From NCBI GenBank assembly GCA_048882325.1, contig JBHLRS010000023.1:1-35168 (forward strand): a stretch of 35,168 bases of DNA, given 5' to 3'. Under the pieces are notes generated by a model. The model searched no databases. It worked only from the letters and a program-made list of their open reading frames with translations, and was not told the origin of the DNA. The translations under genes were made by a program, and so were the position numbers. Below, piece after piece: positions 1 to 30,075 of this stretch. Position 1 is the first letter of the stretch; every line of letters starts with the position of its first letter. The DNA is from Candidatus Thorarchaeota archaeon. GTDB lineage: Archaea; Asgardarchaeota; Thorarchaeia; Thorarchaeales; Thorarchaeaceae.

Positions 1-546
1 GGTCTCTCCTACGGCGGATACTTGGCACGAGGTCTGGTTCATCGCAGACCGAAGCAGGTTCTCGGACTTTTGCTGATCGTTCCTAGGATTATTGGTCGTT
101 CCGAGGATAGGATACGTCCTGACAAAACCGTACTGGAGCAAGATGATGAGTTTCTCAGCAGTCTTGGAAAAAAGGAACGTGAAGGTTTTGTAGATGTGGC
201 AGTAATCCAAACTGGAAAACTTTGGCCTCGCTATTCCGAAGAGATCACGCCTGCAGTCCAGATCGCTGACAAGCAATTTCTCGAACGGCTGGAACCTGGC
301 GATGATGATTTTAGCTTTGAAGTTGACTCTCTCTCCGTCAAATTCGATGGTCCAACCCTCATTCTGGTCGGAAGGCAAGATCATTGGGTGGGATATCAAG
401 ACGCCTGGAGGATCATAGAGAAATATCCTCATGCTACATTCGCGGTCTTGGACAGAGCAGGTCACGCTTTGCAGTTAGAGCAGACAGAATTGTTCAATGT
501 GCTTGTTTCTGAGTGGCTTGACAGAGTGGAAAAAGCTGAGAAGTAG
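1..546 (+). CDS. Alpha/beta-fold hydrolase, 5'-truncated by the window edge
   Basis: Frame is open from base 1 and reads GLSYGGYLARG (GxSxG nucleophile elbow), then LILVGRQD (acid residue) and AGH (catalytic His). Confidence 0.9.
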   Translation, partial: GLSYGGYLARGLVHRRPKQVLGLLLIVPRIIGRSEDRIRPDKTVLEQDDEFLSSLGKKEREGFVDVAVIQTGKLWPRYSEEITPAVQIADKQFLERLEPGDDDFSFEVDSLSVKFDGPTLILVGRQDHWVGYQDAWRIIEKYPHATFAVLDRAGHALQLEQTELFNVLVSEWLDRVEKAEK

Positions 547-603
547 ATGGGATCCATTGCGGGATTCTAACTTCCAACAGTGGAATCACTGGAGCTCTCC
601 TTC

Positions 604-26699: not shown

Positions 26700-27191
26700 T
26701 TATCGTTCTAGTTCCTTCATAAGCTGAGTTATCCTTTCCATATAGGCTTCAATGTTTGTCCATTGTCCACCTTGAAAGAAGACACTGCTACAGTATCTAC
26801 AGAGCCAGAACTCCGAATAATGATTGAACGTCTGTTCAGCGACTAGCCTTCTGATGGTTTCTTTCTCCTCGTCAGTGATATGCGTTAGAACGCCATTACA
26901 TTTAGTGCAACGCGATTTTGAGGGGTCTATCTTAGGATTGATTTCAAATTTTGAGAAAACGATTGCCACCTCCTCGTCCACAGATCCCCTAACTAACATG
27001 AACGCTGCACCTGCATTCTCTGCTCTTCTTGCAAGAATAGCATCTGATGTGAGCAAAACCCTATTCTGGTCAAGCGCGATTTGTAGAAGCTGGTCATCAT
27101 GTATTTTGGTTGAGTAAAACGTGTCATATCCGGCAAGTCGAAGCCACGTGGCAAGTTTTCCTAGCATAGCATCAACAATGAACGTTCTCAT
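26700..27191 (-). CDS. Mut7-C RNase (PIN-like, DUF82) domain protein with zinc ribbon
   Basis: FIVDAMLGKLATWLRLAGYDT, RVLLTSD, SRCTKCNG.L, FW.C..C..VF. Confidence 0.92.
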   Translation of the reverse strand: MRTFIVDAMLGKLATWLRLAGYDTFYSTKIHDDQLLQIALDQNRVLLTSDAILARRAENAGAAFMLVRGSVDEEVAIVFSKFEINPKIDPSKSRCTKCNGVLTHITDEEKETIRRLVAEQTFNHYSEFWLCRYCSSVFFQGGQWTNIEAYMERITQLMKELER

Positions 27192-28093
27192 TGATTTTCA
27201 CCGAAAATTAAACGCGAGGCATTCTTCCACATCACTTTCTCAATCTCATCTTTGTGCACTTGCTTGTATCCCTGATCAATCATCTCAGAAGGGATCTGTA
27301 AACTGGTAAAGAACTCCACCCATTTTCTGAGTGGCATCGTGAATTCAAACAGTGGGAAATCACTCCCAAAGATCATTCGATTCGGAAACACCCTCAGAGT
27401 CTTTGCATCTCCAATCATCTGATACACTTTCATTGGTACTGCTGATGCAAATACCTGCCACCCTGATACATCTACCGACACATTCGGGTTTTTAGCTGCT
27501 ATCATAAGAGTTTCATCATGCCAAGGAAAACCAACATGGGCCAGTATTATTTTCAGATCAGGAAAGTCAGCTGCAACCCTGTCAACATAGACCGGTCTTG
27601 CATACTTCACATGTTTGTGCCTGGGAGTGAATCCCTGATGAATGAGGATCGGAATGTTCAGGTCTATGCAAAGCTTGTAATAGGGATCAAACTCGCTTTT
27701 GTCCGGGTAGAACCCATTTGGAGGGTACATCTTCCACCCCCTACACCCTTTCTTAGTTACTGCTCGCTCTAGTTCCTTCAGCCCTGCTTCTCCTCTTCTT
27801 GGATCAAGACCGACGAATGTCACTATGTCAGTGTCACCTTCCACCTCATTCACATGCCAGTCTGTCTTCTCTGTCATCGTGAGGGGCATCTTTTGATGAT
27901 ACGCACTATCAATTGGTAATATGACTGCCCTATCTACTCTACTTGTTTCCATGGCATTACGAAGAGTGTCAATCGTTGAGTCAAGTACTGGATCGACACC
28001 ATCACGTTCAGCGGCTGCAAGACGTGATGTAAGATCCCTCTCACTGATAATATCCTTCGACCATGTATGGGTGTGCGCGTCAATGACCTTCAA
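27188..28093 (-). CDS. Amidohydrolase family 2 protein
   Basis: IDAHTH, GWKMYP, ILIHQG, ILAHVGFPW, IFGSDFP, NASRL. Confidence 0.92.
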   Translation of the reverse strand: MKVIDAHTHTWSKDIISERDLTSRLAAAERDGVDPVLDSTIDTLRNAMETSRVDRAVILPIDSAYHQKMPLTMTEKTDWHVNEVEGDTDIVTFVGLDPRRGEAGLKELERAVTKKGCRGWKMYPPNGFYPDKSEFDPYYKLCIDLNIPILIHQGFTPRHKHVKYARPVYVDRVAADFPDLKIILAHVGFPWHDETLMIAAKNPNVSVDVSGWQVFASAVPMKVYQMIGDAKTLRVFPNRMIFGSDFPLFEFTMPLRKWVEFFTSLQIPSEMIDQGYKQVHKDEIEKVMWKNASRLIFGENQ

Positions 28094-28938
28094 GTGAACT
28101 CACTCCGTATCTTCTCCAACTCATCGATAACCTCAACGGGAACGGTGATACTTCCAAGTTCTGTATAGTGAATCGCACCGTGATAGTCACTTCCTCCTGT
28201 TTGTATGACTTCCAAACCTTTGATGACTTCACTCACCTCGTCAGGTGTACGATGTGTTCCCATGAACCTATAATCATAATCCACCTCAACGCCCAAAAGA
28301 CCTACGGTCATGAGGTCTTCAATTAACGTCCGAAGATCATGCGTTTTTATGGTGAGAGGATGAGCAAGGACCGGTATTGCTCGGATCGTTTTGAGGAGCC
28401 TGACCGCATCAAATGTTTGCATTCGTACCTTCTTCACAAAAGCTGGTCTGTCGAATGCAATGTACTTGTCAAATGCTTCCCTGGTTGACTTCACAACACC
28501 TTTCTTAACCAACAACAGCGCAACGTGAGGTCTACCCGGGCTCGAAACGCCTTCCAGCTCTTTATACAGCTCCTCAATCGACACATCAATCCCTAAATCA
28601 TTTAATTTCTGAATCATCTTGGGAAGCCGATCGTGTCTCCCTTTCCTCAAGTGTTCCAGTCTGTCATTCAGTTGCTTTGAGTCATGCGGGACGAAATATC
28701 CCAGTATGTGAGCCTCTGCGCTGTTGAATTCAGTGCTTATCTCTACTCCAGGTACCCGCCTAAGGTCATCCGACGCAGTCGCATCCATAAACTCTCGTAT
28801 CCCATCAAGTGAATCATGGTCTGTGAGGCCAATGCCTCCTAGCTGCATCTCGTCAGCCGCTCTTACCAATTCAGTGGGTGTGTCGCTTCCATCTGAAGCA
28901 GCTGAATGAGTGTGAAGGTCAGCACGGGCTCTCACCAT
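28090..28938 (-). CDS. PHP-domain phosphoesterase (TrpH/YciV-like)
   Basis: DLHTHS.ASDG, LTDHD, GVEIS, HILGY, GRPH, VLAHP, TGGSDYHG. Confidence 0.93.
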   Translation of the reverse strand: MVRARADLHTHSAASDGSDTPTELVRAADEMQLGGIGLTDHDSLDGIREFMDATASDDLRRVPGVEISTEFNSAEAHILGYFVPHDSKQLNDRLEHLRKGRHDRLPKMIQKLNDLGIDVSIEELYKELEGVSSPGRPHVALLLVKKGVVKSTREAFDKYIAFDRPAFVKKVRMQTFDAVRLLKTIRAIPVLAHPLTIKTHDLRTLIEDLMTVGLLGVEVDYDYRFMGTHRTPDEVSEVIKGLEVIQTGGSDYHGAIHYTELGSITVPVEVIDELEKIRSEFT

Positions 28939-29335
28939 GTGCAGCCTCCTGCCTCAACGTTTCTACAAGCTTTCGAACCTTGTGGCAAACCTTACGAATC
29001 TCTTCTCGACTCACGGTTTCTCCTGAGGGACAATCCTTGTCAATTATACATTTCCGCTTTCGCGCATCATAGATTATTGGATAATATTTACACCCTTCCG
29101 GTCGGTCCTCATAGATACGACAGAGTTTTGTTCCAGGATCATAGAAGAAACATTTCCCCTCAATGTTTCTGAGTTCGCAGAATCCTGCCATTACTCGGAC
29201 AGCGAAGTCCTTCCTGTCATAACCCAAGGACTCGATTCTCTCTACATCCTCTCGAGTCAAGGTCATTTCAGTTTCAGTGCAACACAGACGGACTTCATCA
29301 CAAGATCCATCATGGTTGCAGAGGAAGGGTGTCAA
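28919..29335 (-). CDS. YkgJ (UPF0153/CxxCxxCC) cysteine-cluster protein
   Basis: C...SC....CC.ETEM.LT.ED..RI, G.CFF, CRIYEDRPEGC..YP, DCP; AGGAG upstream of the TTG start. Confidence 0.88.
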   Translation of the reverse strand: MTPFLCNHDGSCDEVRLCCTETEMTLTREDVERIESLGYDRKDFAVRVMAGFCELRNIEGKCFFYDPGTKLCRIYEDRPEGCKYYPIIYDARKRKCIIDKDCPSGETVSREEIRKVCHKVRKLVETLRQEAAHGESPC

Positions 29336-29356
29336 GGTGTTGTATACTCCTAGCGC

Positions 29357-29432
29357 ATCGGTCAGATTGCGGTTTAGTGGTTCATCACGCTGATGAGGTC
29401 GTTCACCATCCCTACTTCATCATCATCCCGAC
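29357..29432 (-). ncRNA. Candidate box C/D guide sRNA
   Basis: Minus strand reads GTCGGg-ATGATGA ... GTGATGA-accactaaaccgcaat-CTGA-CCGAT: exact C, C' and D boxes plus a 5-bp terminal stem. GAAAG-ca-TATTTAG (BRE/TATA-like) lies about 25 nt upstream. Confidence 0.8.
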
Positions 29433-29481
29433 AATAATGAAATACTCCGCTCAAGGCTAAATATGCTTTCTAAAGATGATG

Positions 29482-30075
29482 TCATTTGAATTTCTTTAAT
29501 CGATATGCAAACAACCAGATGATGACCGCCAGCTCTGCAAAGATACCTGCCAAGAGTATCCCCTCACTGGTGAAGCTTGGATCTACTCGTTGAAATTCCA
29601 TATCCTGAATCATGAAGGTCCTGCTGAAGTTTTCGTTGAACAACTCATACAAGACAAAGAGACCTGTATCACTCTCATAGAACACATTTGATTCTTCAGT
29701 CACTTTGCATTCCCAACAGTCATGTCCAAGTATAGTTGTCATGCGCATGACTTCTGCATGAATGGGTCCACCGATTGCAACCATCTCATGAATGTCCCAA
29801 GAACTCACGTCAACTGCAAGAGGATAGTCATAGTAGTACTGGGTCTTCAATACTGTAATCAAATCATCCATAGATGATACATATGTCAACGTGTCTACTC
29901 TGTCTTCGTAGCTCCAGCCTGTTGCATTATTGAAGACCTCTTCACTGTAATACATCTCTACGGTCAAGTACCGGGTTGTGTCATTGTCCGGTCTATCCAT
30001 TAAGATGAAAGGAGTGGCAAGTGCAAACAGAAGGAAACCCACAATTACAACAATTAACGCCTTGTTCTGAATCAT
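29482..30075 (-). CDS. Exported, C-terminally anchored hypothetical protein
   Basis: N-terminal hydrophobic segment, acidic beta-rich core with N-x-T/S sequons, C-terminal TM followed by RLKKFK. Confidence 0.75.
   Translation of the reverse strand: MIQNKALIVVIVGFLLFALATPFILMDRPDNDTTRYLTVEMYYSEEVFNNATGWSYEDRVDTLTYVSSMDDLITVLKTQYYYDYPLAVDVSSWDIHEMVAIGGPIHAEVMRMTTILGHDCWECKVTEESNVFYESDTGLFVLYELFNENFSRTFMIQDMEFQRVDPSFTSEGILLAGIFAELAVIIWLFAYRLKKFK

Follow-up and report, generated by a model that had tools for sequence, protein, structure and literature searches.

A conserved box C/D guide RNA of Thorarchaeaceae with two predicted 16S rRNA targets and a stem-capped internal kink-turn

Archaeal dual-guide box C/D sRNAs, such as the Pyrococcus sR families of Rfam, are 50-60 nt in length and contain C, D', C', and D boxes, together with a terminal-stem kink-turn that has a 3-nt bulge. 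Their symmetric spacers of ~12 nt act on conserved regions of rRNA according to the N+5 rule, and the three core proteins are encoded by the host. The second L7Ae site of these sRNAs is usually a short K-loop. In Nanoarchaeum equitans, sR17 (helix 28) and sR15 (helix 30) are long-range double guides of 16S rRNA (Dennis et al. 2015, PMC4644070), and a role as folding chaperones has been proposed for these RNAs (PMC4644070; PMC7994747). L7Ae-binding kink-turns also occur in archaeal 5' untranslated regions (UTRs), including those of the l7ae and nop5-fibrillarin mRNAs (Daume et al. 2017, PMC5539422). In the searchable literature, no survey or catalogue of Asgard box C/D guide RNAs was found.

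We analyzed a 35,168-nt stretch of DNA from a Candidatus Thorarchaeota archaeon (the window) and a 76-nt element on its minus strand. The element resembles the archaeal dual-guide sRNAs in its four boxes, the terminal-stem kink-turn with its 3-nt bulge, the symmetric spacers, the N+5 register, the location of its predicted targets in conserved rRNA, and the presence of genes for all three core proteins. It differs from them in its greater length, in its 13-nt spacers, and in having no match to a curated Rfam family. Moreover, the C'/D' motif of the element forms a full kink-turn with a covarying stem and a loop of 7-12 nt instead of a short K-loop, and its D' box reads GUGA and contacts C' through a reversed G-C pair. 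The genuine stem-loop between D' and C', a length beyond that of typical archaeal sRNAs, and the Asgard host lineage are reminiscent of eukaryotic box C/D snoRNAs; unlike snoRNAs, the element is preceded by an archaeal BRE/TATA promoter of its own, its spacing is tight and symmetric, and both of its guides look functional. The equivalents of its two predicted target nucleotides, C952 and C1382 (Escherichia coli numbering), are not known to be 2'-O-methylated in yeast or human 18S rRNA. As in the archaeal 5' UTRs bound by L7Ae, kink-turns are located in a coding leader near a ribosome-binding site (RBS). In contrast to those UTRs, the element is a complete guide RNA with conserved antisense elements, and the downstream genes do not encode sRNP proteins. 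In these comparisons, the family stands out by the stem-capped internal kink-turn and the 13-nt spacers, by a single RNA predicted to pair with strands of both helix 30 and helix 28, and by its constant place in the leader.

The initial annotation had interpreted the element as an archaeal methylation guide of the box C/D type under its own promoter, and this main reading held in view of the boxes, conservation, covariation, and 16S pairing. The coordinates it gave for the C, D, and GUGAUGA boxes, the terminal stem, and the TATA-like motif were all correct when read on the minus strand. The features of the locus are summarized in Table 1. On the minus strand, a single G separates the 5' stem arm from the C box. 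The C box lies in a GAU repeat whose first register is the conserved one; the second is not maintained in relatives, where AUGAAGA, AUGACGA, or AUGAAUA is found. All sequence-level features that define an archaeal dual-guide box C/D sRNA were found in the element.

Table 1. Coordinates of the guide RNA, its parts, and the neighboring genes in the window
Feature	Position	Strand	Basis
Promoter: purine-rich BRE-like run, then TATA-like ATATTTA (29464-29458)	29457..29470	-	direct reading
Whole box C/D sRNA, 76 nt	29357..29432	-	boxes read directly, BLAST, alignment, covariance model R1
Terminal stem, 5' arm GUCGG	29428..29432	-	covariation with 29361-29357
C box AUGAUGA	29420..29426	-	invariant, 30/30 genomes
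D' guide, 13 nt, predicted antisense to 16S rRNA at ~E. coli 1378-1389	29407..29419	-	12 contiguous bp
D' box, variant GUGA	29403..29406	-	GUGA or GCGA in 38/46 relatives
Internal stem-loop between D' and C', 16 nt	29387..29402	-	3-bp stem ACG/CGU, 10-nt loop, CAUC core
C' box AUGAACC, revised register	29379..29385	-	covarying stem and sequences of relatives
D guide, 13 nt, predicted antisense to 16S rRNA at E. coli 949-958	29366..29378	-	10 Watson-Crick bp
D box CUGA	29362..29365	-	invariant, 30/30 genomes
Terminal stem, 3' arm CCGAU	29357..29361	-	covariation with 5' arm
Shine-Dalgarno-like GGAG, 11 nt before YkgJ start	29347..29350	-	direct reading; conserved in genus
YkgJ-type CxxCxxCC protein gene, TTG start at 29335	28919..29335	-	Pfam PF03692, 49 bits
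PHP-domain gene, YciV/TrpH type, overlapping YkgJ by 20 nt	28090..28938	-	Pfam PF02811
Amidohydrolase_2 (Amidohydro_2) gene, 4-nt overlap	27188..28093	-	Pfam PF04909, 137 bits
Mut7-C RNase-domain gene, 4-nt overlap, last of unit	26700..27191	-	Pfam PF01927, 136.5 bits

The distribution of the element was investigated with a covariance model (R1) built from a 30-genome alignment. R1 scored the element at 105.7 bits (E ~1e-24) and detected the RNA in 59 of the 86 family genomes (11 of 16 genera), always as a single copy. No R1 match was obtained in 125 genomes of other Asgard families; because C/D RNAs diverge fast, this result does not show that such an RNA is absent there. When a 151-nt query was used for BLAST, distant genera matched positions 38-114 only, which correspond to the element itself. 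In a DNA search of 60 relatives, the similarity 5' of YkgJ began at query position 639-647, the first base of the element. The element was detected as a separate match (93% identity, 70 nt) or as the sole match (81%, 72 nt) in two genera, and the flanks were unalignable outside the genus. The 30-genome alignment contained 28 invariant columns, including the C box core, the D box, and the D guide. Conservation of boxes and guides in related genomes, on which the initial annotation had made its reading depend, was thus observed for the C box, the D box, and the D-guide core. A 43-codon open reading frame (ORF) lies across the element on the plus strand, and its reading as a coding sequence was ruled out by scattered one-base gaps in the alignment.

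Rfam yielded no match to any curated family at gathering thresholds, so the recourse to Rfam and Infernal suggested in the initial annotation gave no support at curated thresholds. The similarities below threshold were exclusively to archaeal C/D sR families, the best of them at 9.8-17 bits against cut-offs of 37-45 (sR7, 13 bits, and sR3, 11 bits, against cut-offs of 37-41). In two good genomes of the same genus (G001 and G012), the operon is kept, and the sRNA is represented by a probable decayed remnant upstream of YkgJ. This remnant (L036 and L037; 220 nt 5' of YkgJ) is weakly alignable, its C box is gone, and its D guide is interrupted; the local alignments were only marginally above shuffles, 4 and 15 of 200 of which scored as high. 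The decay in these two genomes indicates that the RNA is dispensable, not essential.

Box motifs coming together by chance in a promoter or 5' UTR region, with no RNA function, were also considered, given how short the C and D boxes are. In a crude scan of the genome for C...D frames, 340 frames with a stem were found, 20 of which had a 9-bp rRNA match where ~14 were expected. This expectation (13.6-15) was derived from shuffled or reversed guides and means that the scan does not discriminate; a reversed-genome control of the same scan was unfair owing to codon bias. Apart from the element, the scan left 19 further frames with a 9-bp rRNA match, for example, in contigs C41 (10030-10078, minus strand) and C43 (1533-1592, minus strand) of the source genome (G000), again with ~14 expected by chance, so that these frames are leads only. 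The chance reading is refuted by family-wide conservation limited to the element, by the covarying helices, and by the invariant guide, and its probability is close to nil. Judged by these features, the 76-base stretch is a genuine, conserved box C/D small guide RNA, ordinary in kind but from a family that is absent from Rfam.

We examined the structure of the RNA in an alignment of 46 sequences, 45 of them distinct. The proposed pairs held in 86.9% of cells. Double-sided changes numbered 44 compared with 11.9 expected, a value reached by none of 500 shuffles; these counts come from an alignment fitted to the structure model, and the same trend was observed on an independent MAFFT alignment. 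The terminal stem covaried at pair 5-85 (UA 25, GC 7, UG 4, AU 2) and at pair 6-84 (CG 38, UA 5). The C/D kink-turn showed a 5-bp stem, a G-A-U bulge, and a G-C pair at 15-78 in 45 of 45 distinct sequences. The energy of the single-sequence fold was ordinary (z = -0.45 versus shuffles), as is expected of an RNA shaped by proteins.

The internal 3-bp stem also varied with its pairing preserved, and its outer (closing) pair was GC in 18, AU in 15, and GU in 11 sequences. It is followed on its 3' side by a 3-nt bulge (GAU, UAU, AAU, or CGU, the third base always being U), GA, and N-C-C. In the element, the bulge is formed by G29386-A-U, and the sheared pairs are made from the GA at 29383-29382. 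The C' box had been placed at GUGAUGA (29387-29381); the motif is present, and relatives read GCUAUGA, GCAAUGA, or GUCGUGA at this heptamer, so that its first GA is lost in many of them. The covarying internal stem and the 3-nt bulge fix the C' register 2 nt 3' of GUGAUGA, which makes AUGAACC the working C' box. In this register, the first G of the D' box pairs with the C at C' position 6, a GC combination in 41 of 45 distinct sequences. These results indicate that the C'/D' motif, as read from the alignment, is a full kink-turn with a capped stem and not a K-loop. Both spacers measure 13 nt here; among the 46 sequences, 27 have the 13/13 arrangement and 6 have 12/12. Six lineages have lost one base from one guide, and in each of them the other guide shows a matching loss, giving 12/12.

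The loop of the internal stem-loop comprises 7-12 nt among relatives. At 29393-29399 on the minus strand, it has a CAUC core in almost all 46 relatives, and the variant UCGUC would still pair with GAUGA through G-U. This core is complementary to both the C and C' boxes, and when the conserved loop was compared with rRNA for additional pairing, only chance-level runs of 7-8 nt were found. It had been suggested that an internal TGATGA/TCATCA pairing could sequester the C box and that the RNA may act as a regulatory leader. Such a hairpin between loop UCAUCA and UGAUGA was backed by fewer compensatory changes and left more cells unpaired than did the kink-turn model; the pairing would form most easily with the adjacent C' box and excludes the covarying stem. 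A regulatory leader operating through C-box sequestration is speculation.

Next, targets of the two guides were sought. The source assembly (3.6 Mb, 89 contigs, 93% complete) did not yield 16S or 23S rRNA, and the targets therefore rest on the 16S of congeners. The search used 16S and 23S rRNA of congeneric species, with 16S pairing evaluated against G017 and G005, and E. coli numbering was assigned by alignment to an E. coli 16S copy whose 5-nt deletion was corrected via primer landmarks. Positions 2-11 of the D guide form 10 Watson-Crick bp with 16S UUGCGGUUUA. The N+5 nucleotide, opposite the fifth base through a G-C pair, is C919 of the congener, equivalent to E. coli 952. A C near E. coli 952 had been named as the target of this guide on the basis of 9 bp, and this was borne out; the pairing is one bp longer than proposed because the 16S of the genus reads CUUGCGG. 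The D' guide forms 12 contiguous bp (10 Watson-Crick and 2 G-U) with 16S CGUCCCUGCUUC, and its fifth base forms a G-C pair with C1354 of the congener, equivalent to E. coli 1382. Neither guide had a comparable match in the congeners' 23S rRNA. Shuffled guides scored as well in 51 of 2,000 cases for D and 12 of 2,000 for D'. Taken alone, the 16S match of the D guide is only moderately improbable (p ~0.03), and that of the D' guide is statistically stronger. With regard to the rRNA genes themselves, 16S and 23S are ~70 kb apart on contig C205 of G017 (L026, L042), indicating that the rRNA genes are unlinked in the genus. Also, 16S matches of ~2.3-2.4 kb for a 1.48-kb model were observed at G014:C73:13812-16104 and G048:C1:448464-450889, which suggests large insertions or introns in these two 16S genes.

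The eight-base core of the D guide, AAACCGCA, was invariant in 46 of 46 relatives, and the flanking U was present in 44. D-guide positions 1-2 varied from AU to GU or GA only. Pairing was kept at the variable positions: D-guide position 2 is A or G opposite U, and D'-guide position 8 is U or C opposite G. The changes within the guides retain pairing (A-U to G-U, G-U to G-C), and drift is seen in the flanks and in the D' half. By the established E. coli helix numbering, the D target belongs to the 5' strand of helix 30, and the D' target overlaps the 3' strand of helix 28. The UGCUUC in the D' target is the partner of GGAGCA in helix 28; the D' guide accordingly mimics the helix 28 5' strand. 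The two target sites are ~435 nt apart in sequence, at the base of the 16S 3' major domain. These pairings suggest that the RNA most likely directs 2'-O-methylation of two conserved 16S cytidines.

A target in tRNA or another non-ribosomal RNA, in place of 16S, was also considered. The D-guide complement had been noted to resemble a tRNA D-arm, and an 8-nt exact match does exist between the 16-nt D-guide string of the initial annotation and the D-arm region of tRNA-Thr; this match uses nucleotides of the C' box and is out of the N+5 register. Aragorn, run at two settings (14 and 31 tRNAs), gave 31 tRNAs of the source genome, none of which paired with at least 9 bp, mostly Watson-Crick, in the N+5 register. 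When both guides were compared with rRNAs and tRNAs, a check the initial annotation had put forward, each paired with at least 9 bp of the congeners' 16S rRNA and with none of the tRNAs. The 16S matches are much better, and an action outside the ribosome is highly improbable. A search of 314 other Asgard genomes with a gapped D-guide pattern gave four matches, compared with none for the reversed pattern. Two of these loci in other Asgard families, L081 (677-750, plus strand) and L078 (1494-1562, plus strand), are unrelated-looking C/D candidates with terminal stems and N+5 on C952; in the L081 candidate, CUGA is preceded by GCAGG, which would match a 16S containing CCUGCGG. C952 of 16S rRNA may therefore be targeted more widely in Asgard archaea, as far as such candidates go.

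The D' half of the RNA was less uniform. The D' guide has been replaced outright in genera g2, g5, g9, g31, and g34, and the D guide in none; such replacement corresponds to the modular turnover of guides known for this class of RNA. A plain helix seems to have taken the place of the C'/D' turn in genera g7 and g8. Two extra pairs can lengthen the non-canonical stem into both guides. Given the non-consensus D' box, GUGA or GCGA instead of CUGA, and the altered turn in g7 and g8, some lineages may have a D' half with little or no activity. It is conceivable on these grounds that the D guide alone directs methylation, at C952, and that the D' half aids 16S folding or is inert. However, the D' guide core is conserved in most of the family, the common U to C change opposite a 16S G keeps pairing, the spacers stay symmetric down to the paired one-base deletions that give 12/12, and the D' match to 16S is statistically the stronger of the two (12/2,000). 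We consider an RNA with only one methylating half quite unlikely.

The pairing of one sRNA with 16S segments that are hundreds of nucleotides apart and adjacent at the base of the 3' major domain is shared with sR17 and sR15 of N. equitans. sR17 targets U1371 in the alignment numbering of PMC4644070, 2 nt from the present C1382, and sR15 pairs with the helix 30 strand 5 nt from C952. Unlike the N. equitans guides, the element joins the 5' strand of helix 30 to the 3' strand of helix 28, and the exact nucleotides differ. In the same alignment, the present sites correspond to columns 935 and 1369, the nearest listed sites being G930 and U1371, and none of the guide sites predicted for the seven species in the supplement table of PMC4644070 falls at these columns.

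Upstream of the element, the promoter has an archaeal BRE/TATA arrangement spaced for a start at about the first base of the RNA. Positions -29 to -26 relative to the first stem base were 84-95% A/T across 46 loci, with a purine-rich run further upstream, and a TATA-like box was detected in every genus. Just 5' of this promoter, a 197-codon ORF (29482-30075, minus strand) has no Pfam match, and its DNA is conserved only in a few close relatives; from its sequence, it looks like a variable membrane protein gene. Fibrillarin (289 bits) and Nop5 (228 bits) are encoded side by side on contig C46, and contig C25 carries the L7Ae gene. The enzyme that such an RNA would guide is thus present.

Downstream, the element had been described as ending ~21 nt before the YkgJ start and heading an operon, which agrees with the 21-nt gap observed here and with YkgJ being the next gene in 45 of 46 loci, on the same strand 3' of the sRNA (~12 genera; gap of 19-99 nt). 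The PHP gene was syntenic in 44 of 46 loci. The unit at 26700-29335 on the minus strand consists of four overlapping genes, two of them nuclease-like, and the gene beyond Mut7-C is a convergent OsmC. YkgJ has a conserved non-ATG start, TTG here (29333-29335, minus strand) and TTG or GTG in most relatives of the genus. Against NCBIfam, the PHP protein scored 156 bits for nucleoside bisphosphate phosphatase and 125 bits for RNase RNM, both below the equivalog cut-offs. Between the sRNA and YkgJ, neither a T-run or terminator nor a second promoter motif was found in the window, and no conserved one was found across the 46 loci; the most likely reading is therefore that the sRNA forms the 5' leader of the transcript of this operon. 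In the only genome of the sister family, which belongs to the same order (G037; L041 ~470-556, minus strand), a canonical C/D kink-turn RNA is located ~20 nt 5' of YkgJ. It has a perfect 6-bp terminal stem, an AAU bulge, AUGAUGA, CUGA, and different guides: the D guide is A-rich without an rRNA match, and the D' region has an 11-bp (9 Watson-Crick) match to 16S with no clear target. From this comparison, the leader position seems to be older than the guides.

The linkage to YkgJ and PHP, kept without a conserved second promoter, raises an addition to the guide function, in which the RNA acts in trans as a guide and in cis as a leader that sets operon expression, through L7Ae or the sRNP bound near the RBS or through processing. 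Such a stable context is unusual, as the surroundings of archaeal C/D genes are reported to vary (PMC7994747), and the sister family shares the arrangement. In Sulfolobus, L7Ae is known to repress translation by way of kink-turns in 5' UTRs (PMC5539422). On the other hand, the kink-turn ends 21 nt before the start codon in the genus and leaves the GGAG uncovered, the operon is kept without an intact sRNA in G001 and G012, and shared ancestry together with promoter sharing could by itself account for the linkage; furthermore, the invariant D guide is explicable only by a target in trans. A cis role of this kind is possible but unlikely. A bolder version would make the RNA a two-in-one molecule, both a guide and chaperone for the 16S neck/head junction and the obligatory leader of an operon with two RNase-type enzymes, kept for that reason; we regard this as doubtful and decidedly unlikely. 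If it were true, sRNP assembly on the nascent leader would tie the output of the YciV/RNase AM-like PHP protein and Mut7-C to the availability of L7Ae, Nop5, and fibrillarin, and so to ribosome biogenesis. The PHP and Mut7-C enzymes might then trim the ends of the sRNA or of rRNA, and the sister-family C/D RNA at the same place would mean that the leader position itself is under selection.

The preferred explanation, which we hold to be very probable from the features of the locus, is a stand-alone dual-guide box C/D sRNA gene with 16S C952 (D guide) and C1382 (D' guide) as targets. Transcription would start at or within a few bases of 29432 from the BRE/TATA promoter. The 5' and 3' ends would pair, allowing the C and D boxes to form a kink-turn, and D' GUGA with C' AUGAACC would form the second kink-turn, whose canonical stem is capped by the 10-nt loop. 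L7Ae is expected to bind both turns and to recruit Nop5 and fibrillarin. The two 13-nt guides would pair with nascent 16S rRNA, and fibrillarin would methylate the 2'-OH opposite the fifth guide base, at C952 for the D guide and at C1382 for the D' guide. The RNA would probably also act as a chaperone that keeps hold of the helix 30 and helix 28 strands while the 16S rRNA folds. It would most likely be made as the 5' leader of the operon transcript, presumably by co-transcription, and be trimmed to its protein-protected core, a release route described for archaeal C/D sRNAs located within 25 nt of a gene (PMC7994747).

These results provide a covariance model that recovers, in 59 genomes, a guide RNA family for which Rfam offers no model, as well as two concrete predicted targets at the junction of the 16S head and neck. 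The internal stem-loop kink-turn is nearer to the layout of snoRNAs than the usual archaeal K-loop and would be a small data point on the origin of snoRNA architecture. The fixed place of the RNA before RNase-like genes makes it a natural case for considering whether archaeal guide RNAs may double as mRNA leaders. For the archaeon itself, this is the kind of RNA expected in an organism with the full sRNP machinery.
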